From an uncultured Gemmatimonadales bacterium (GTDB lineage: Bacteria > Gemmatimonadota > Gemmatimonadetes > Longimicrobiales > RSA9): a stretch of DNA of 64,000 bases. Within the stretch, counting starts at the first letter, position 1. Each line of letters starts with the position of its first letter. Below, in pieces: positions 52,662-64,000 of this stretch. Both the position numbers and the translations under genes were made by a program. Under the pieces are notes generated by a model. The model did not search any database. It was not told the DNA's origin and was given only the letters and a program-made list of their open reading frames with translations. Location of the stretch: NCBI GenBank assembly GCA_963798085.1, contig CAWCRS010000003.1, forward strand, positions 96,001 through 160,000, in the 5' to 3' direction.

Positions 52662-53447
52662 TCACAGGCGCAGCAGCTGCTGCCTCACAATGCGCCCGCG
52701 GATGCGGCTGACATTGAGTTGCTGCCGGTTGCTGAGAGTGACGACGTAGGTTCCGCCGGGCATGGGGCTCACGCGCTGGACCATGTCGATGTTGGCAAGT
52801 GTGCCGCGCGAGAGGCGGACGAACTGCGCGGGGTCGAGCCTGGCTTCCAGGTCTTTCAGCCGGAACGTGATGGTGTGGCGCTCGCCCGATCCGAGCGTGA
52901 GGTGCAGCAGCTCGCCCTCCGCGATGATGGATGCGACCTGATCGACGGGCACGATGACAATGTCGTCGCGGCGGCGCACGGGAATGCGCCGCAGGTAGCC
53001 CGTGCGCGTTCCCACCTCGTAGTCCACCATGGCCGCGCGCAGCCGGATCGCGCCTTCGCCGGGCTGGTAGTCCGACTGCTCGAGCCTCTCATGCGCGCGC
53101 GCCAGCGTGCGCCGCAGCCGGGCCGGCTCGACCGGCTTGAGCAGGTAATCGATGGCGTTCAGCTCGAACGCGCGCACCGCGTATTCGTCGTATGCAGTCA
53201 CGAATGCGACCAGCGGCACGCAATCCCGTTTCAGCAGTCGCACCACGCCCAGGCCATCGATCTCGGGCATCTGCAGATCGAGCAGCGCGAGGTCCGGCTC
53301 GACGCTCTCGATCACGCGCACAGCCTCCGACCCCGAACTCGCCTCGCCCGCCAGCTCCACGTCGTCGCACGCGCGCAGCAGGTCGGCCAGGAACGTGCGC
53401 GCCGGCCGCTCGTCATCGGCGATGACAACACGGAGTTTGCCGGTCAT
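52662..53447 (-). CDS. LytTR family response regulator
   Basis: IADDE, LDLQMP..DG, FVTAYDEYA..AFE..A.DYLLKP, LE.RLDP.QF.R.SR. Confidence 0.93.
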   Translation of the reverse strand: MTGKLRVVIADDERPARTFLADLLRACDDVELAGEASSGSEAVRVIESVEPDLALLDLQMPEIDGLGVVRLLKRDCVPLVAFVTAYDEYAVRAFELNAIDYLLKPVEPARLRRTLARAHERLEQSDYQPGEGAIRLRAAMVDYEVGTRTGYLRRIPVRRRDDIVIVPVDQVASIIAEGELLHLTLGSGERHTITFRLKDLEARLDPAQFVRLSRGTLANIDMVQRVSPMPGGTYVVTLSNRQQLNVSRIRGRIVRQQLLRL

Positions 53448-55390
53448 GACGGCACACCCACGGCCGAGTCGACCGCTTCCGGGGCGCCGATCAGCGGCAT
53501 GCGCAGCTCGACCGTCGTGCCGACGCCGGGCGCACTGCGCACAGCCATGGACGCATCCCCGCCGAACAGCTGCTCGAGGCGCCGCTGCACGCTGGACAGG
53601 CCGATGCCCTGGCTGCGCCGTCGCTCCAGCTCCACCTGGGTTACGCCCACGCCCGTGTCGAACACGCTGACACGCAGCGCGTCGCCCCCCGTGACCTCGT
53701 GCTCCGCTCGGGCCTGCACCACGATCGAGCCGCCCGCCGCGCGCGGCGCAATGCCGTGTTTGACGGCGTTCTCCACCAGCGGCTGCAGGATCAGCGGCGG
53801 CACCGATACGCCGGCCAGCTCGGGCGGCACATCGATCGTGACGCGCAGGCGTTCCTCGAAGCGGGCCCGCTCGATGGCCAGGTAGGCCTCGACGATTTCG
53901 ATCTCCTGGGACAGCGTCACGTATCGGCCATCGACGCGGCGCAGCACGGCGCGCAGCAACTCGGTTAGCCGGTACAATGTCTGGAGCGCGCGATCCGGCG
54001 CCGCGCGCATCAGGTATCCGATGGTGGTCAGCGCGTTGAACAGGAAGTGCGGGTTGAGCTGGGCGCGAAGTGCCCGCAGCTCGGCTTCGGTGGCCAGCTG
54101 CAGGATTTCGTTCTCGTGCATGCGCCGCTCGACGCGCTCGCGGGCGAGGCGCAATGCATCAATGCGTTGCCCGGCAGCGACCGCTGCCGATTCCAGCATG
54201 CGCAGATCGTCGCTGAGCAGAACGCGACCGCCCTCGAGTCCCGAGATCTGCAGGATGTACGAGGGCAGCTCGGCGGTCGCGACCTTGGCCGTCGCTTCCT
54301 GCCGTCCTTCGCGCGACACCACGTTGATGGGCGGCCATGCCGCGGTCGGCGCTTCGACTTCCGACCAGGCGAGGCGGCGAACGGAAAGCGCAGGACCCAG
54401 AAGCCGACACGTCGCCTCCAGCACTTCGATCTCGCTGTCCAGCGCCGCTACGGCCGCAACGATTTCCGCGCGCACGCGGCGGTAGTCCACGCGGCGCAGC
54501 ACTACGCGATCCACGAAGCGGCTGGCGCCCATGCGCAGTGCCGGATAGGACACGGCGATGGCCAGCCACAGCGTGACGAGCGCGCCCACCGCCCGCGGGT
54601 CCAGCGGGTCAGCGGACAGCTGTGGCAGCACGAACGGCACCACGATCGAGAAGTAGCCGGCAATGATGATGAGGAGGACGGCCACGAGCGCGAGCACACG
54701 TTTGAGGAAGAGATCCGCCAGCGCGAAGCGGTAGTCCTGGTAGAGAATCGCGATTGCCAGCGGAATCGATGCGTGGTGACCGACCAGCTCGACCCACCAG
54801 CGATCCGCTTCGCTGCCGTGCAGGCTCTGGTGCAGTGCCATCACGGCGAAGGCGGCGAGCGCGACGCCGGAGAGGCCTCGCCGCCAGCCCGGCCGGCGTC
54901 GTGTGAGGACGGCGAGTGCGGCCGTGAGTGTCGCGTATCCCGCGGACAGCAGCAGCAGTCCGAAACGACTGGGTGCCACGTGCTGTACCGCGGCGGCCTC
55001 GAACTGCATGAGTGCGGCCGCGCCGCTGAGCGCATACGAAGTGGCCACCAGCGCGCGCGAACCACGCCCGCGCGGAAGATTCTGCGATGCCGCGTGCACC
55101 ACCACGGCGGGCAGGAAGCCGAGCGCGCCGAATGCAATGGCCACAGCCCACGCCGATGGTGTCGTGCCGGCGAGATCGCGCAGTCCGTAGACCGCCAGCC
55201 CACCGATGTTCCACACCACACCCAGGCCGGCCGTGGCGACTGCCATGCGGTCGATAGCATACGCACGTGGTCCCTCGCTCGCCCGTCGCGTGCGCCCGCG
55301 CACTGCCATGGCACCCACCATGGCGTACAGCGCGGCGCCCGTCACGAAGCCAACGAGGTGAACCAGCGTCGACAGATCGTTCGTCGGCAT
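53444..55390 (-). CDS. LytS/YehU-type membrane sensor histidine kinase
   Basis: Multiple TM helices; LRAQLNPHFLFNAL, E.ARF..RL, LQPLVENAVKHG, DTGVG, GIGL. Confidence 0.92.
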   Translation of the reverse strand: MPTNDLSTLVHLVGFVTGAALYAMVGAMAVRGRTRRASEGPRAYAIDRMAVATAGLGVVWNIGGLAVYGLRDLAGTTPSAWAVAIAFGALGFLPAVVVHAASQNLPRGRGSRALVATSYALSGAAALMQFEAAAVQHVAPSRFGLLLLSAGYATLTAALAVLTRRRPGWRRGLSGVALAAFAVMALHQSLHGSEADRWWVELVGHHASIPLAIAILYQDYRFALADLFLKRVLALVAVLLIIIAGYFSIVVPFVLPQLSADPLDPRAVGALVTLWLAIAVSYPALRMGASRFVDRVVLRRVDYRRVRAEIVAAVAALDSEIEVLEATCRLLGPALSVRRLAWSEVEAPTAAWPPINVVSREGRQEATAKVATAELPSYILQISGLEGGRVLLSDDLRMLESAAVAAGQRIDALRLARERVERRMHENEILQLATEAELRALRAQLNPHFLFNALTTIGYLMRAAPDRALQTLYRLTELLRAVLRRVDGRYVTLSQEIEIVEAYLAIERARFEERLRVTIDVPPELAGVSVPPLILQPLVENAVKHGIAPRAAGGSIVVQARAEHEVTGGDALRVSVFDTGVGVTQVELERRRSQGIGLSSVQRRLEQLFGGDASMAVRSAPGVGTTVELRMPLIGAPEAVDSAVGVPS

Positions 55391-55550: not shown

Positions 55551-56154
55551 TCAGTTCACGCTCGCCGGAAAATCGATGCTGAGGTCCGTGTCGAACGTCG
55601 AGCCGAGACCATCGCCCTTGGCAGCCTCGAAATGGTGCAGCTCGACGTGCAGGTTGCAGCTGGCCGTGGTCGGCGCATTCGCATCCACGACCACCTGGAA
55701 CTTCAGACCCACCGGCTGCGGCGTGGGCGTCTGCGTGTCCAGATCCAGACTCGACACCGGAACCGTGACGCCGCCGCAGTCGAATGTGTAGAAGAAGCGG
55801 TGGAAGTTCGCTTCTTTGCGTACCTCGTCGGTGATGTTGATCACGTTCTTCGAGTCCAGATCGTTGAGCAGCTCGACGGTCCCGTCATAGGTCTTGCTCT
55901 TGTTCAGCGCGAGCACGCCCTGCGCCGCACCCACCGGCTTGGGCAGCTGCGTGCCATCCGGATCCACCCGCACCGATGACACGGCGCCCCCGCCACCGAT
56001 CGGCGTGAGCGTAATGGTGACGCGCGAGATGTTCTCGGGATCGCCGGCGCCCTCGAATGGGTGCGGCGGGATTGTCGCAGGCCGCGCCTGCGAGCAGCGC
56101 GCCCATGACGAGTGGGAACAGAACGTTGCGACGGCAGACCTCCCCTGCGCTCAT
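55551..56154 (-). CDS. TonB receptor-associated lipoprotein, frameshifted
   Basis: LAGAAC lipobox; ENISRVTITLTP, DPDG, ITDEV..EA..HRFFY, PVGL, LHH...K, TDL.IDFP across frames. Confidence 0.65.
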
Positions 56155-56212
56155 GGCCAGCCCTCCTGATGGTCGTATGGACGGGCGCGGTTTCGCCACC
56201 CGCCTGCTGCTT

Positions 56213-58687
56213 CTAACGCCCTGTTTCATGGAAGGGCACGGTGAAGCGCAGCACGACGTCGCGCCCCGGCTCATCCACGAACAGGCGATAGCGGCTCAGA
56301 TAGTCGCGATAGCGCGTGTCGAACACGTTGCGCAGGGCCAGGCTGGGCTCCACGTGCAGCTCGCCGACGTGCAGCGCGGCCGCACCCAGCTCGAGGTTGT
56401 AGAGGCCGTAGCCGGCGGTGGGCAGCTTGTAGATGGTCACGGGCGGCACGCGGGTCTGCCGCAGCACCTGCGTGGTACCGATCTCCAGCCACGGCCCCAG
56501 CAGATGCTCCCCGCTGCCACCCGTGAAGCGGACCGAGGCCGTGATGCGGTCGGCCGGCATGTCGTAGAGCGCGGCACCCGTGGCCCGATCGCTGCCGCGC
56601 ACGATGTTGGCATTGCCGTAGAACGAGAGCCAGGCTGCGGGCGTCAGCTCTCCGGTGATCTCGAGGCCCTTTAACAGGGCGTTAGCATGGGCGTAGTCGT
56701 ATGCGGGATAGGCGCCGCGCACGGTGACGACGGGGTCGCGCGGTTCCAGGAAGATGAAACCGTCGATCTGGTTGCGGTATGCGCTCAGCTCCAGGCGGGT
56801 GCGCGCGCTCAGGTGGCGCAGCGTGCCGTCCACGTTGAACGAGCTTTCCGGACCCAGCGACGGGTCGCCGATCTCGTACTGCGCCGTGCCGTGGTGCACG
56901 CCCTGGCTGAAGCGCTCGTTCACGTTGGGCGGACGCCAGGCCCGGCCCACGGTGCCGCCCAGCGACCAGCTGCCGCTCAATTTCCACGACGCGCCCAGCG
57001 AGCCCGACGCGCCCAGGTACGTATGCCGGTCCTCCGGGCTCACGACCACCGGCGCGCCGAACTGGTACGCGTGCTGCCAGCGGTCGTCGTAACGCGCGCC
57101 CGCGGTCAGCGTGAGCCGGTCCAGACTCAGCTCCTCCAGCGCGTAGACGCCCCCCGCATACAACCGGTACTGCGGAATCAGGAACGAGCGCCCCGGCGAC
57201 AGGTTGCCCTGACGCATCCCGCTGAAGCCGATGGTTCCCGCCAGTCTGCCGACGGGCGGGTGGTGGTACTTCACGTCCAGCGTGTGCGTATACAGTTCCA
57301 GCGCGAAGGCCGGACGATTGCCCACCGCGAAGCCGTGATTGTCGAACTCCTGCCGGTCGTTGTACTGGAAGCCGTACGCGACATCGAGCCGCGAGCGCGG
57401 CGTGAGGTTCAGCTCCGTGCGCCAGGCCAGCAGCTCGTGGCGTACCTTCTGATCGGGATGACCCAGTGTGTAGGCGAAGCTGTTCGTGGTGTAGGCGCTG
57501 TCCATGGCGCGCTGCAGGTCGTCCAGATTGCCCACGTGCGCGCCGATGTAGAGGCCGAGGTGCGTCCCGAAATGACTGTAGTCCAGCTCCGTCCGGCCCC
57601 ATGACCGGCTCATGCCCAGGGCCGCGTTGAAGTCCAGCTCCTCGAACCCTGTGTTAGGCAGGTAATACGCGGGCGCGCGCGCGTCGCCCGCACGGCGGGC
57701 ACTGAACTGGGCGCGCCAGCCCAGGGCGCCCAGCCCGGGCAGCCGCAGGTCGCCGCCCTCCAGCAGCAGCGAAGCGGCGCCCTGGCGGTTGTTCCAGAAG
57801 CTGTTCGTGGACAGCTCGCCGCCCACGCCGCTGCCTGTGGGCAGCGGCCGCGGCATGACGCGCACCACACCACCCAGCGCGCCCGAGCCGTAGAGGATGG
57901 TGCCCGGTCCGCGGATGACCTCGATCTCGTTGGCGGCGAAGGCGTCCACCTCGGGCGCATGCTCGCCACCCCACTGCTGCCCCTCGAGCGGTACGCCTGA
58001 TGTCACCGTGGCGATGCGCTGCGAATGGAGCCCGCGCACCACCGGCTTGGCGATGCTGGGCCCGTACTGGATGACCGCGACGCCGGGCAGCTCCTTGATG
58101 GTCTCCACCATGGTCTGCCCGCGCTTCTGCTCCACCTGCTGCACGGTCATGGTCGTCGTGGCCTGCTTCGCGTTCAGGAAGGTGGCCGTCTCCCGATCTC
58201 CGCTCACATCGATGCCGGACAGCTCGACCGCTTTCGTAGCCAGTGCCACTTCCACCACGGCATCCGAGCGCGTGAGGTCTACGCGCCGGTGGGCGTTCGC
58301 GTAGCCCAGCTGCTCGATCGCGACTGTGACCACAGGCGGCAGGAAACCGGCAATGCGAAACCGCCCCGTGGAGTCGGAGAGGACGGACTGCCGGGTCTCG
58401 ATGACAGTGATGTTCGCGCCGGCGAGCGGCTGGTGCGTGGCCGAGTCCGTGACGATGCCGACGATCTGCCGCCGCGATTCCGCGTGCTGGATCTGCTGCG
58501 CGCGGAGGGAGGCCGTTCCCCCGACGAGCAGCAGCGCCGTGGCCATCGCGCAGCGAGGGAGCGCGCCGGGCGGGCGCCAGCGCGCGCGCTGGTGCGGCGG
58601 AGTCGTCGCCTGTGACCTGAGAACGCCGGACACCGGGCCGCGCGGCGGGCGCCGGCCATGGCTGGGAATGGTGCATGCCTCATGCAT
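56213..58687 (-). CDS. TonB-dependent receptor, probably metal (Zn/Ni/Co) uptake type
   Basis: CarboxypepD_reg-like N-domain, KPVVRGL, QQWG.EH, EVIRGP..LYGS.ALGGV, F.QGVHHGT..YEIG, YRDYLS, PGR; start uncertain. Confidence 0.9.
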   Translation of the reverse strand: MHEACTIPSHGRRPPRGPVSGVLRSQATTPPHQRARWRPPGALPRCAMATALLLVGGTASLRAQQIQHAESRRQIVGIVTDSATHQPLAGANITVIETRQSVLSDSTGRFRIAGFLPPVVTVAIEQLGYANAHRRVDLTRSDAVVEVALATKAVELSGIDVSGDRETATFLNAKQATTTMTVQQVEQKRGQTMVETIKELPGVAVIQYGPSIAKPVVRGLHSQRIATVTSGVPLEGQQWGGEHAPEVDAFAANEIEVIRGPGTILYGSGALGGVVRVMPRPLPTGSGVGGELSTNSFWNNRQGAASLLLEGGDLRLPGLGALGWRAQFSARRAGDARAPAYYLPNTGFEELDFNAALGMSRSWGRTELDYSHFGTHLGLYIGAHVGNLDDLQRAMDSAYTTNSFAYTLGHPDQKVRHELLAWRTELNLTPRSRLDVAYGFQYNDRQEFDNHGFAVGNRPAFALELYTHTLDVKYHHPPVGRLAGTIGFSGMRQGNLSPGRSFLIPQYRLYAGGVYALEELSLDRLTLTAGARYDDRWQHAYQFGAPVVVSPEDRHTYLGASGSLGASWKLSGSWSLGGTVGRAWRPPNVNERFSQGVHHGTAQYEIGDPSLGPESSFNVDGTLRHLSARTRLELSAYRNQIDGFIFLEPRDPVVTVRGAYPAYDYAHANALLKGLEITGELTPAAWLSFYGNANIVRGSDRATGAALYDMPADRITASVRFTGGSGEHLLGPWLEIGTTQVLRQTRVPPVTIYKLPTAGYGLYNLELGAAALHVGELHVEPSLALRNVFDTRYRDYLSRYRLFVDEPGRDVVLRFTVPFHETGR

Positions 58688-58838
58688 TCAGCAAAGTTTG
58701 GACTGCCCGGTCTGCACCGCATTTTGTATCCAATGAGTGGTACATGTGGCCTTACGGGCGGTCCGGCAGGGCAGGCGAGCGGTCTGGCGCAGGAACGCGC
58801 CACCCCCCATTGTGTATGCCTTCGCGATATTCGGGGCC

Positions 58839-59210
58839 ATGACTTTCGCTATCGAACGACGGTTGAACGGCGCTCTGCACACGAGTGTTCGCGCCCTGCG
58901 CAAGGGTGCGATGCTGCTGCTTGCGGCCATGGTACTGGCCGTGGGCGACGTGTGGCCGGTACTCGATCAGGGAATTTCCGTCGGTCCGGAATCCCGTCTG
59001 TCGGTGCCGGATGCCGGCTCCTCCCAGCTGATTCCGCACAATCACGCGTTCTGTGCACTGCTCGGCTCCACACCGTGCCTCCCCGGCACGGCCACGCCGG
59101 TGCACACGGTCGGCAGCCACGAGGCGTTTCTGCCACCGCTCGAAGCGAGGACCGCGCGCTCCATCGTCGCTTTCCATCACACCCGCTCCCGCGCACCCCC
59201 GCTCTTCTGA
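58839..59210 (+). CDS. DUF2946/CruR-like leader protein with C-terminal RAPP arrest motif
   Basis: Basic N-terminus, hydrophobic helix, PHNHAFC, C-terminus HHTRSRAPPLF*; first ORF of a metal-uptake operon. Confidence 0.65.
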   Translation: MTFAIERRLNGALHTSVRALRKGAMLLLAAMVLAVGDVWPVLDQGISVGPESRLSVPDAGSSQLIPHNHAFCALLGSTPCLPGTATPVHTVGSHEAFLPPLEARTARSIVAFHHTRSRAPPLF

Positions 59211-59218
59211 GGCTTGAA

Positions 59219-59302
59219 CGCGTCGCGGCCTGACGTTGCCGTGACGCGGCACTGGTCGCGTCCGGGCAACCGGACACGCACGAGCCAACGGAGTCCGGGA
59301 GG
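59219..59302 (+). promoter_or_regulatory. Structured spacer between leader ORF and downstream RBS
   Basis: Hairpins CGCGTCGCGGC/GCCGTGACGCG (59219-59248) and GTCCGG-GCAA-CCGGAC (59260-59275); SD GGGAGG at 59297-59302. Confidence 0.5.
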
Positions 59303-59308
59303 TCATCC

Positions 59309-60678
59309 TTGAAACAGAAGTGCGGGAGCATCGCCGTCACCGCGGCGACACTGTTCTGCCTTTTATTCACGGGCGCCGGCCAGGCAGCGGCGCAGGAACG
59401 CACATCCGTCGATTCGCTGCGCCTGCGCGTGGACTCGCTGATGCGCGCGCTGGACAGCCTGCGCATCGCCATGTCGCTGATGCAGGTCAACGGCGCGCGA
59501 CCGGCGGCGGTCAGGGTGGACACGGCGGACCCGCTGGCCGCCATTCGCGCCGCGGCGGCGGCAGCCGCGGCGGGGGGCGGTGCCGCGGACACCACGGCCA
59601 CGCCCACCGCCGGTAACACGCAGTTTGTCGGGCGGCAGCGCAACATGAGCATGCTGAACCCCGAAATCAGCGTGACCGGCGATATCTTCGGCTTCGTCGC
59701 GTTCGACGAGCAGAGCGCGTCGGACAACTTCGTGCCGCGCGAATTCGAGCTGAGCTTCGTCTCCAATCTCGATCCCTACTCGCGCGCCAGGATCTTCGTC
59801 GCGCACAGCACGCCGGGCGGTGAGGTGCTGCCCTTCTCGCTCAATGAGACGTCGGGTGATGCGGGTGATGTGGAGGTCGAGGAAGGCTACGCCGAGTACG
59901 TGAATCTGCCCGGCGGTCTGAGCGTGGCGCTGGGCAAGTTCCGGCAGCGTTTCGGCAAGTTCAACCGCTGGCACGCGCACGCGCTGCCCACGCAGCAGCT
60001 GCCGCTGCCGTACATCGCGTTCTTCGGTTTCGAGGGTCTCAGTCAGGCGGGCACCTCCGTGCACTGGCTCGCACCGATCCACCGCGGCGGCACCTATGAA
60101 GCGTGGGGCGAGCTACGCGCAGCAGCAACGATGTGCTGTTCGGCGACTCGCACAAGCTGAGCGCCCTCGCGCATGTCAACGGCTTCTGGGAACTGAGCCC
60201 TTCGACGTACTTCGAGCTGGGCCTTTCGGGCCTGACGGGGAGCCGGGTCGACCCCGAGACGCTGCCCGCATCGGCGCCGCACTCCACGGGCAATCGCACG
60301 CTCGGTTTCGATTTCACGCTGGACTGGCGGCCACCCGAACGCTCGACACGGCAGCAGTTCACACTGTCCGGCGCCGGCATCATGAATCGCCGCGTCTATC
60401 CCGGCGCACCCGACCTCACCGCGCACGGCGCCTTCGCGATTGCCGAGTACAAGTTCGACATCCGCTGGACGGCGGGCGGGCACTACGAATACACGCAGAA
60501 TCCCGAAAATCCGGATCAGCATGCGTGGCTTGCCGGGCCCACGCTCACGTGGTGGCAGAGCGAGTTCGTGCGGCTGCGCGCCGAGTACGAGGTGTTCCGC
60601 GGCCCGCTCGACCGCTTCGGCCAGTTCGTGTTCCAGGCCACGTTCGCCATGGGACCGCACAAGCACGAGACCTACTGA
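59309..60678 (+). CDS. Outer-membrane beta-barrel of the type found in Zn/Mn ABC operons, frameshift near 60100
   Basis: Signal peptide, coiled segment, NPEISVTGD, REFEL, LDPY, EEGY, GKF...FG..N.WHAH, SEF.RLR, C-terminal MGPHKHETY. Confidence 0.75.
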
Positions 60679-60716: not shown

Positions 60717-60792
60717 TGCGCAGAGGTGGGTTGGCAGGGATTGAGACAAACAGAATGATTAGCGGAAGCCATCGCATCGGCAGGGAGTGGAA

Positions 60793-61848
60793 ATGAGTGC
60801 AATGACAGTGATCGGGCTGGTGGCCGCGCTGGGAACGGCGGGGCCGCCGGTACACGGGGTGGATCCGAAGCCGGCGCCGCGCGCGACGTTGCGGGTAGTG
60901 GCGACGTTGCCGGTGTATGCCTCGATCGTGCGCGCCATTGGCGGCAATGAGGTGACGGTGGTGAGCATCGCGGACCCGCACGAGGACGCGCATTTCGTCC
61001 GGCCCAAGCCGAGCTTCGCGGCGGAGCTGCGGCGCGCGGATCTCTTCATCACGACGGGGCTCGACCTCGAGCTGTGGGTGCCGCCGCTGCTGGACAAGGC
61101 CGGCAACTCGAAGGTCACCGAGGGCGGCCCGGGCTACGTCACCACGTACACGGGCATCAAGCTGCTGGACGTTCCGACCAGCACCGATCGCGCGGCCGGC
61201 GACATCCACATCTACGGCAATCCGCACGTCGCGACCGATCCGCTGAACGCGGTCCAGATCGCGCGCAACATCACGATCGGTCTGAAGAAGGTGGCGCCCG
61301 AGCGGGCCGCGGTGTGGGACAAGGGACTGGGCGCATTCACGGATCAGATCTACCGCCGGCTCTATGGCGACAAGCTGGTCGAGGTCGTGGGCGGCGAGGC
61401 GCTGGCCAACCTGTCGAAACAGGGCAAGCTGCAGAGTTTCCTGGACGCGACGCCCTACCAGGGCAAGCCATTGAGCCAGCAGCTGGGTGGCTGGCTGGCG
61501 GCCGCGGCGCCGTTCCGCGGCAAGGACGTCATCTGCTATCACAAGAACTGGGCCTATTTCGAGGATCGCTTCCAGGTGCATTGCGCCGAATTCGTCGAGG
61601 CCAAGCCCGGCATTCCGCCCACTCCCGGACACGTGGCCGCGCTGATCGACATGATGAAGACGAAGAACATCCGCGTTATCATGGCGGCCGACTATTTCGG
61701 TCGGGAGAAGGTCGAGACAGTGGCACAGCGCGCGGGCGCGAAAGCCGTGATGATGCCGCTGGAACCGGGCGATGAGCCCGGCGTGGACACGTTCTTCGAT
61801 CTCGTGGATGTGTGGGTCAAGAATCTCGCGGCTGCATTCAGTTCCTGA
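60793..61848 (+). CDS. Metal ABC transporter substrate-binding protein (ZnuA/TroA cluster A-I)
   Basis: VVAT, EDAHF..PKPS, G.DLE.W, GDIH..GNPH, YH.NW.YF, E.KPGIPPT. Confidence 0.9.
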   Translation: MSAMTVIGLVAALGTAGPPVHGVDPKPAPRATLRVVATLPVYASIVRAIGGNEVTVVSIADPHEDAHFVRPKPSFAAELRRADLFITTGLDLELWVPPLLDKAGNSKVTEGGPGYVTTYTGIKLLDVPTSTDRAAGDIHIYGNPHVATDPLNAVQIARNITIGLKKVAPERAAVWDKGLGAFTDQIYRRLYGDKLVEVVGGEALANLSKQGKLQSFLDATPYQGKPLSQQLGGWLAAAAPFRGKDVICYHKNWAYFEDRFQVHCAEFVEAKPGIPPTPGHVAALIDMMKTKNIRVIMAADYFGREKVETVAQRAGAKAVMMPLEPGDEPGVDTFFDLVDVWVKNLAAAFSS

Positions 61849-61873
61849 GCCATTGCAAGATCGGAGATTCCCG

Positions 61874-62737
61874 ATGCTCGACCTCATTCTGGTTCCGCTG
61901 GCAGCCGCACTGGTGATCCTTGCGATCAACGCCTACTTCGGGCTGCACATCATCCGGCGTGGCGTGATCTTCGTGGACCTCGCCTTCGCGCAGATCGCTG
62001 CGCTGGGCAGCACCGTGGCCTTCCTGCTGGGCGCCCACGGCGGCTCCGCCACCAGCTACTTGTTCGCGTTCGGCTTCACGCTGCTGGGCGCGCTGCTCTT
62101 CAGTTTCACGCGCGTCGAGCACGGCCAGGTTTCGCAGGAAGCCTACATCGGGATCAGCTACGTGGTCGCGTCCGCCGCGGTGATCCTGCTGTCCAGCTTC
62201 ACGGCGGAAGGCACCGAGCACATCAAGGAGACACTGACCGGGTCGCTCATCTGGGTGACATGGCCAACGGTGCTGAAGATCGCGGGCGTCTACGCGCTCA
62301 TCGCCATCTTCCACTGGCTCGTGCGTCACAAGATGATCGCCGTCACGTTCTCGCCGGGCAGCGTGCGCAACGTGCGGCTCTGGGATTTCATCTTCTACGT
62401 TTCTTTCGGCGTCGCCATCACGTTCGCGGTGGACGTCGCGGGCGTGCTCCTGATCTTCAGCACGCTGGTGATTCCCGCCGTGATCGCCTTCCTCTACACC
62501 AACCGGCTGCTCCCCGCGCTGCTGCTGGCATGGGCGACAGGCGCGGTGGCGATCGTCGGCGGCGTCGCGGTTTCCTTCATCTGGGACATCACGACCGGGC
62601 CGCTGCTGGTGGTCGCGTTCGGCGCGGTGCTGGTGGTGGCCGCGTTGCTGCGTCCGCTGCTGCGCCGCCGCGCGCCGGCGGCGCAGCCGCTGCACGGCGC
62701 TCACGAGATGGCCGAGTCGGTTTCCAGCGGCGACTGA
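61874..62737 (+). CDS. Metal ABC transporter permease (ZnuB/ABC-3 family)
   Basis: YFGLH...RGVIFVDLA.AQIAALG, EA.IG..Y, GVLLIFS.LVIPA, TGP..V. Confidence 0.88.
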   Translation: MLDLILVPLAAALVILAINAYFGLHIIRRGVIFVDLAFAQIAALGSTVAFLLGAHGGSATSYLFAFGFTLLGALLFSFTRVEHGQVSQEAYIGISYVVASAAVILLSSFTAEGTEHIKETLTGSLIWVTWPTVLKIAGVYALIAIFHWLVRHKMIAVTFSPGSVRNVRLWDFIFYVSFGVAITFAVDVAGVLLIFSTLVIPAVIAFLYTNRLLPALLLAWATGAVAIVGGVAVSFIWDITTGPLLVVAFGAVLVVAALLRPLLRRRAPAAQPLHGAHEMAESVSSGD

Positions 62738-62802: not shown

Positions 62803-64000
62803 CTAACTCGCCGTTAATTCCGCCAACCTGCGCTGCAGATACCTCTGCTCCACCGGATTGCGGCACAGCTCGAGCGCGCGCGCGTACGCGACGGCGGCCT
62901 CCTCGTGCCTCTGCTGGCGACGCAGCAGATCGGCCCTCGCCGCGTGCAGCAGGTGGAACTGCTCGAGCACGCCGCGCAGCGCCAGTTCGTCCAGCAGCCG
63001 CAGTCCCTCCGCCGGACCGCTCGCCATGGCCACGGCGGCGGCGCGATTCAGCTCGATGACCGGAGTCGGCTGCTGCTCCAGCAGCTCGCCGTAGAGTGCT
63101 GCAATGCGCGCCCAGTCGGTAGCCGCGGCCGCCGGCGCGCGCGCGTGCTGGGCAGCGATCTCCGCCTGCAGCAGGAACGGTCCCCGTCCACGGCCCGCGC
63201 CTGCCTGCGCCAGCAGTGCCAGTCCCTCCGCGATGTGCGCGCGGTCCCAGCGCGTGCGGTCCTGATACTCGAGTGTTATCAGCTGCCCGGCCGCATCGGT
63301 GCGCGTCGCGCGGCGTGAGTGGTGCAGCAGCATCAGCGCCAGCAGAGCGCTGACTTCGGCGTCCGCGGGCAGCAGCTGCCGCAGCAGCCGGCCCAGCCGG
63401 ATGGCCTCGGCACAGAGATCGGCGCGCAGCAGCGTGTCGCCTGCAGTCGCGGCGTAGCCTTCATTGAAGACCAGGTACACGACCGCCCGCACAGCCGCCG
63501 TCCGCTCGGGCAGTGCTTCGGGGGGCGGCACGCGATAGGGAATCCCCGCGTCGCGGATCTTGCGCTGCGCGCGCACCAGCCGCTGCGCCATGGTGCTCTC
63601 ACTGACCAGGAACGCACGCGCGATCTCGCGCGTCGCCAGCCCGGCGACCGCGCGCAGCGTCAGCGCCACCTGTGCTTCCTCGTGCAGGGCCGGATGGCAG
63701 CAGGTGAAGATCAGGCGCAACCGGTCATCATCCGGAACGGGGGCGACGACATCGCTCGCCTTCTCTTCTTCTCCGATCTGGCCGGCCGCTTCTTCCAGCT
63801 GCAGCAGACTCTGCAGTGCCTCCTGGTTGCGACGGAACGACTGATCGCGCCGCAGCCGGTCGAGTGCCCGGCGGCGCGCGGTGGTGGTGATCCACGCCGC
63901 CGGCCGCTGCGGAATACCGTCCCTGCCCCACGCATCGAGCGCGCGCACCAGCGCGTCGTGCAGCGCATCTTCCGCCAGCTCGAAGTCGCCACACGCGCGG
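62803..64000 (-). CDS. ECF sigma factor with TPR-like C-terminal extension (ECF42/DUF6596 type), 5'-partial
   Basis: [51 protein letters not shown]. Confidence 0.9.

Follow-up and report, generated by a model that had tools for sequence, protein, structure and literature searches.

What governs a zinc-type uptake operon whose first gene encodes a short peptide ending in a RAPP arrest motif? The window analysed here, a stretch of 64,000 nt from an uncultured Gemmatimonadales bacterium, carries such an arrangement, in which a 123-codon open reading frame (ORF) precedes genes for a porin-like protein, a ZnuA-like binding protein and a ZnuB-like permease. The reading that we favour, at a probability of roughly 0.6, is that a DUF2946/CruR-related leader stalls at RAPP and uncovers the porin-like gene's ribosome-binding site (RBS), and that a metal, probably zinc, releases the stall and shuts the porin-ZnuA-ZnuB operon. 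The sources of the close protein matches are named as Gemmatimonadota and Longimicrobiales, and the phylum label used throughout rests on such names. The features of the locus, all on the forward strand, are as follows.

58826..58831 (+): -10-like hexamer GATATT, 7 nt upstream of the leader ATG; start possibly leaderless; match to -35 poor (2 of 6)
58839..59210 (+): leader ORF, 123 aa; predicted DUF2946-related RAPP arrest-type peptide; relatives mostly 108-115 aa
58908..58964 (+): hydrophobic helix, aa 24-42, ending in a conserved PxL[DE] motif; predicted to act as signal peptide or membrane-anchoring signal
59037..59054 (+): HxHxxC motif (H67-N-H69-A-F-C72), with H67, H69 and C72 as a putative metal site; 45 residues lie between C72 and the RAPP Arg
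59190..59201 (+): codons of the RAPP arrest motif, predicted to serve in the mRNA as an anti-Shine-Dalgarno arm
59211..59308 (+): intergenic region, 98 nt; two predicted hairpins (about 59219-59248 and 59260-59275) bringing the RBS next to the RAPP codons
59297..59302 (+): Shine-Dalgarno (SD) sequence GGGAGG of the porin-like gene; predicted to pair with the Pro-Pro codons when no ribosome is there
59309..60678 (+): porin-like outer-membrane gene; a single frame of about 455 aa in relatives, here broken in two by a frameshift (near 60106-60130)
60787..61848 (+): ZnuA/AztC-like cluster A-I binding protein (PF01297, 148 bits)
61772..62737 (+): ZnuB-like ABC-3 permease (PF00950, 80 bits); true start probably near 61880

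The leader and its relatives

Translation confirmed the description given in the initial annotation, namely a 123-residue product with a basic N-terminus, a hydrophobic helix and the C-terminal sequence RSRAPPLF followed directly by the stop codon, 98 nt ahead of the TTG start at 59309, which GGGAGG precedes. The Arg of RAPP is residue 118, His residues lie at 67, 69, 89, 94, 113 and 114, and Cys residues at 72 and 80. Residues 24-42 have a mean Kyte-Doolittle hydropathy of 2.1, and the export signal or transmembrane segment was judged from hydropathy and the predicted helix alone.

For an unbiased set of loci, 151 related genomes were searched with the N-terminal part of the downstream porin-like gene, of which 49 matched, and the upstream DNA was read at the 30 best porin-anchored loci, the window locus included. 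In 28 of the 30 this revealed an ORF whose product finishes with R[AGS]PP and 2-4 further residues, the exceptions being the operons L023 and L024, which have no R[AGS]PP leader. Because the ORF is present in 28 of 30 loci selected by the downstream gene alone, it is not a chance occurrence; the leader ORF is real and conserved. A scripted pattern found HxHxxC with exactly 45 residues between Cys and Arg in 25 of the 28 leaders, in agreement with the non-CxxC variant that had been claimed; two of the other three carry HxHxxxC together with RSPP, and the third, L050, has CxxC at a gap of 43. When the 27 leaders other than L050 were aligned (18-35% identity to the window protein), H67, H69, C72, R118, P120 and P121 were the sole invariant columns, with a one-residue insertion in two sequences. 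Retention of HxHxxC and R[AGS]PP upstream of homologous operons, which the initial annotation had named as a check, was thus observed at 25 of the 30 loci, and the claim that a conserved RAPP leader heads a porin-ZnuA-ZnuB operon stands, with PF01297 and PF00950 matched downstream.

With a profile of the leader, 404 of 1.84 billion representatives were retrieved at E ≤ 0.001, and 57 of 401 genomes of the phylum matched it at E ≤ 0.01. Motifs were counted in 171 listed profile-matched proteins, the window's own excluded, and these counts are partly circular because the profile was built on the motif: R[AGS]PP occurs in 169 of the 171 (RAPP 156, RSPP 8, RGPP 5, none 2), HxHxxC in 161 of those 169, and the Cys-Arg gap is 45 in 151, 44 in 11 and 46 in 7. 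The linker between the metal motif and RAPP is free in sequence and fixed in length. An additional upstream His and Cys (consensus H-x4-C-x3-HDH-x2-C), missing from the window protein, are present in 108 of the 169. The second Cys, C80, and the HH pair, which had been counted as part of the metal site, are not supported as conserved ligands, being in register in 0 and 1 of the 169 relatives, respectively.

In CruR (Bp2923) of Bordetella pertussis, 45 residues separate CXXC (90-93) from RAPP (139-142), and this distance is reported to be maintained across the family and required for regulation (PMC9426467). As the spacing between HxHxxC and RAPP equals this CxxC-RAPP spacing, His replaces the first Cys in register, while the invariant Cys stands at the register of the second. 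Scans of the window leader against Pfam and NCBIfam gave no family. Matches to DUF2946 (PF11162), the family named in the initial annotation, came from relatives, of which 11 of 27 matched at E ≤ 10; a rescan of these 11 at E ≤ 1 listed three, one of them above the cut-off (24.2 vs 23.7 bits). In the atlas, Gemmatimonadota clusters were matched at 0.95-0.96, the top match being a putative DUF2946 cluster (0.96). CxxC leaders with a gap of 44-45 (L103, L107, L110, L112, L115, L117 and L120) score with the same profile, and the CxxC leaders L050/L137, L112 and L115 also head a porin-ZnuA-ZnuB operon (gaps 43-45). By sequence comparison, then, the window leader is a DUF2946/CruR relative that fails the CxxC criterion and not a plain member. 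Two further leader-like ORFs were noted on contig C9 of this genome (G000): one at about 133150-133490 (L147:1492-1833, reverse strand), with CxxC, the end RDPPTS and 21.1 bits to DUF2946, and one at about 239200-239680 (L145:1432-1914, forward strand), a DUF2946 leader (24.7 bits) rich in Met and His that contains CCCPAC, ends in IGPP, precedes a probable TonB receptor and is a copper-type candidate.

The operon and its probable metal

The outer-membrane protein-ZnuA-ZnuB operon of the initial annotation was recovered as to its genes, with the amendments that the outer-membrane gene is split here and that the window operon, unlike canonical ZnuABC, has no ATPase gene. The frameshift in the porin-like gene is probably an assembly error, since 5 of 31 sampled gene positions in the genome show such splits; no contig of run X1 reaches across the site. 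PF07642 was found on 2 of 120 listed matches of this gene, the window copy giving no family match, and a plasmid search with it returned one match, unannotated. An ATPase gene lies between ZnuA and ZnuB in 2 of 42 operon loci and is missing from the other 40, of which two stop near the edge of a contig; the genome's best ATPase match has 36% identity.

The binding protein has about 350 residues with an insertion near residues 190-235, and its predicted ligands are H69, H147, H252 and possibly E326 (numbered from 60787). The three His residues align with ligands of solved cluster A-I proteins; all 34 binding proteins extracted by script from the 42 operon loci have His as third ligand, and no Asp is conserved at the fourth position. 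The manganese binders MntC and PsaA are reported to use His-His-Glu-Asp, a ligand set that differs from that of the window-type protein, and some zinc binders lack the Asp (PMC3851752). TroA binds both manganese and zinc (PMC3851752), so that the three-His set is only an indication of zinc. In L093 and L097 the operon is followed by ZIP genes. The three-His binding protein, the ZnuD-like receptors described below and the nearby ZIP genes favour zinc over manganese, and the latter, which had been put forward as an equal candidate, gives way on account of the third ligand His. Judged from these sequences, zinc is probably the metal that the leader would sense.

Forty further profile matches head 22 porin-ZnuA-ZnuB operons, 15 TonB-dependent receptors and 2 RND efflux operons, with 1 at a contig end. 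Five of the receptors were scanned: ZnuD (NF038289) was the best NCBIfam match for four, at 182-350 bits against a cut-off of 950, and the fifth is siderophore-like. The efflux operons are both of TolC-HlyD-RND type, that behind L086 (HxHxxC) being CzcCBA-like and that behind L120 having a CxxC leader. Because the HxHxxC leader L086 heads an exporter, the motif alone does not fix the direction of control, and these two operons suggest that the leader device may run with either sign.

Several neighbouring genes were also recorded. A divergent TonB-dependent receptor (824-aa ORF) followed by a lipoprotein-like gene occupies 55551-58687 (-); the two share 53.5% and 46.5% identity with a pair at L116 that is headed by a RAPP leader, no leader precedes the pair in the window, and the pair is probably a second metal-uptake unit lying back to back with the operon. 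A frameshift suspected in the divergent lipoprotein gene was not confirmed, as the gene reads in a single frame. By ORF motif reading, a LytS/LytTR-type two-component pair lies at 52662-55390 (-). An ECF sigma factor with DUF6596 and TPR lies at 62803-63948 (-), convergent with the operon.

Promoter and predicted pairing at the ribosome-binding site

A simple promoter and terminator scan of the window locus found nothing. Across relatives, at least five of six positions of TTGACA were matched at the spacing expected of a leaderless transcript, starting at the leader start codon, in 29 of 63 loci, compared with 8 of 619 control windows. No Fur/Zur-type box was seen at the window locus, where the best site had 5 mismatches to the one 7-1-7 pattern used; the same pattern was matched within 1 mismatch at 1 of 67 loci (L038), and a Gemmatimonadota Zur box may differ in shape. 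The genome has two Fur-family genes, and a perfect Fur-type 7-1-7 box lies elsewhere in it (G000 C7:1028674). At L038 the Fur-family-like palindrome lies over the leader start, with weaker versions at L049 and L087, so double control by palindrome and leader is possible in some lineages.

Pro-Pro codons are C-rich by necessity, and some pairing with an RBS is expected of them. The 156 nt from the leader end into the porin-like gene have a minimum free energy of -79.6 kcal/mol (z -4.4 vs 200 shuffles), with the Pro-Pro codons 59196-59201 predicted to pair with the SD region 59296-59302. A contig of run X1 has one extra base behind 59247, within the intergenic hairpin. RAPP peptides are reported to arrest the ribosome while its P site holds the first Pro (PMC10951233), and the footprint of a stalled ribosome was modelled by forcing everything up to 17 nt past the first Pro codon to be single-stranded. 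In this model the mean unpaired probability of the window SD rose from 0.16 to 0.67, and mean SD accessibility over 66 loci, for which start codons were picked by an automatic rule, in some cases wrongly, rose from 0.20 to 0.40, going up by more than 0.2 in 32 loci and down in 2. Pairing of the RBS to the RAPP region exceeded 0.5 in only 27 of the 66.

Complementarity between the two elements was also compared across loci by permuting partners, keeping the 46 loci with a clear RBS (intergenic regions of 50-140 nt) and dropping 21 of 67. Duplexes of the RAPP region with the RBS of its own locus averaged -16.9 kcal/mol vs -14.7 for permuted partners (0 of 5000 permutations; z -5.4), and control windows at -75, -51, -27 and +21 showed no effect (z 0.1, -0.8, -0.4 and 1.0). 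The effect persisted after thinning by identity (below 50%, n = 37, z -5.1; below 40%, n = 29, z -4.4), and at 33 of 46 loci the native RAPP-region codons gave better pairing than their synonymous recodings did. Among all partners, the own RBS came first at only 2 of the 46 loci (median rank 15.5). At 43 of 67 loci the first Pro is encoded by CCT or CCA, vs 17% of other leader Pro codons and 14% of those downstream. RNAalifold gave no consensus structure on 10 unalignable intergenic regions, one row of which (L139) was mis-cut. Own-locus complementarity between the RAPP codons and the RBS, together with the folding prediction, points to possible translational attenuation of the SecM/CutF type.

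Proposed mechanism, alternatives and known systems

In the mechanism that we propose, the leader ribosome would stall at RAPP, as other RAPP peptides do, and in that position it would occlude the Pro-Pro codons predicted to form the anti-SD arm, leaving the porin RBS free and the porin-ZnuA-ZnuB operon on. A metal, probably zinc, would bind H67, H69 and C72 just outside the tunnel and release the stall as in CruR, whereupon the helix between RAPP codons and RBS would form and uptake would stop. We infer stalling and zinc binding by the leader peptide, and that metal turns the operon off solely because the operon encodes an importer. A more far-reaching reading, which we hold tentatively and at somewhat below even odds, is that zinc uptake in Gemmatimonadota proceeds without a Zur-type repressor, by way of a leaderless mRNA, an HxHxxC that reads zinc on the nascent chain, arrest codons doubling as the anti-SD arm, and a single Cys-to-His swap within a fixed 45-residue ruler that retunes the copper-sensing CruR device.

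Sites made of His and Cys also bind copper, nickel and cobalt, and the same stalling switch might respond to a metal other than zinc (copper, nickel, cobalt or manganese) or to several, which we consider unlikely. CruR and CutF, both of the relatives tested, sense copper, and Ozturk et al. report clusters of CutF-like proteins that contain Cys, His or the two together, linking the His-only ones to nickel and cobalt genes and suggesting those metals for them; in addition, ZnuD and AztC scores fall far below their family cut-offs and MntC is the second NCBIfam match. Copper-gene Pfam families were, however, absent from the 89 neighbouring ORFs scanned, which were hand-picked from 331 unlabelled ORFs, and zinc is what the binding protein with its three His, the ZnuD-like receptors and the ZIP genes indicate. 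We judge it rather improbable that the arrest acts through Rho-dependent termination in the intergenic region, as in CruR, with the RBS helix secondary. Locus-specific complementarity confined to the RAPP window speaks against this, as do the intergenic regions, which span 50-140 nt at the 46 loci and are strongly folded in the window, vs 162 nt in CruR (PMC9426467); in its favour are the ruler and downstream import logic, which are the same as in CruR, the C-rich 3' end of the leader ORF, and the little predicted RBS pairing in half of the loci. Rho termination and RBS attenuation can also act together.

There is little to recommend the view that the leader monitors Sec export capacity like SecM or ApdP and paces the three envelope proteins, its His/Cys cluster being structural or sensing redox, even though RAPP peptides of solved mechanism precede protein-localisation genes and the hydrophobic segment is conserved (mean hydropathy at least 1.6 in 163 of the 171 listed proteins) and keeps a constant spacing to the Cys (30-31 residues in 140 of 155); the 40 examined profile matches head metal-type loci only, apart from the one at a contig end, and invariant metal-type ligands occupy the CruR position. 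Hardly credible, finally, is a product that serves as a small exported metal chaperone, or a stall that metal prolongs so as to induce the operon. CutF does stall for longer with copper, and the related leaders L086 and L120 head efflux operons, but an importer is unlikely to be induced by the metal that it takes up, the AlphaFold model of the leader is of low confidence (pTM 0.35) and unfolded outside two helices, and a linker of free sequence and fixed length is what a nascent-chain ruler would have. The reading of a metal-released, RBS-uncovering leader is the one we retain.

Published papers or their supplements already contain RAPP leaders ahead of metal genes, variants with His only, and leaders ahead of this porin family; what appears to be new from the sequences is the in-register Cys-to-His swap, the zinc-type targets, the predicted covarying helix between RAPP codons and RBS, and the predicted leaderless promoter. 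The initial annotation knew of no description of the variant, and the HxHxxC form was indeed not found in print, whereas His-containing non-CxxC leaders had been proposed in general terms for other metals. The literature search found no description of the HxHxxC Gemmatimonadota form, of this operon type or of zinc sensing, and supplements may list some; of the nine leaders in the available part of the PMC12992588 supplement, eight have CxxC, none has HxHxxC and a zinc test is given for none. Nascent-peptide metal sensing has been shown for copper alone in the literature found, and a zinc version, if true, would give a soil phylum that is abundant and little studied a way to zinc homeostasis that needs no repressor. 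The natural CxxC/HxxC pair before the same operon offers a direct test of the determinants of metal selectivity and sign.

As far as the available texts describe them, four known systems invite comparison. Zur-repressed znuABC and znuD, as in the Caulobacter Zur regulon (PMC4176598), comprise the same kind of target genes and are controlled by a DNA-binding repressor, unlike the window locus with its absent 7-1-7 box and an operon without an ATPase. ApdA and ApdP are RAPP arrest peptides that monitor protein localisation and are described without a metal site (PMC10951233, PMC12992588); the window leader resembles them as a predicted small secretory protein with a C-terminal RAPP and, by prediction, the logic of RBS sequestration, and differs in its putative HxHxxC metal site. 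CutF of Rhodobacter capsulatus is an exported leader with CxxxC whose stalled ribosome melts mRNA structure hiding the next RBS, and which senses periplasmic copper during export, copper lengthening the stall and inducing a detoxifying enzyme (bioRxiv 10.1101/2022.11.11.516240, 10.1101/2025.02.05.636593). The window locus shares with CutF a leader and a structure predicted to hide the downstream RBS, but an importer lies downstream and the sign of control would be opposite. In CruR, copper is sensed in the cytoplasm with the signal peptide dispensable, and metal relieves the stall (PMC9426467). The window leader, for which the initial annotation put forward sensing during export, may follow either pattern. 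Like CruR, the window leader is the first gene of a metal-import operon, with a predicted export signal, RAPP near the C-terminus and the last Cys of the metal motif 45 residues ahead of it; unlike CruR, it has HxxC (HxHxxC) instead of CxxC, its Gemmatimonadota relatives head porin-ZnuA-ZnuB or ZnuD-like genes and not copper genes, often from a predicted leaderless promoter, and a shorter intergenic region with a predicted RBS helix takes the place of the Rho-dependent termination shown for CruR.
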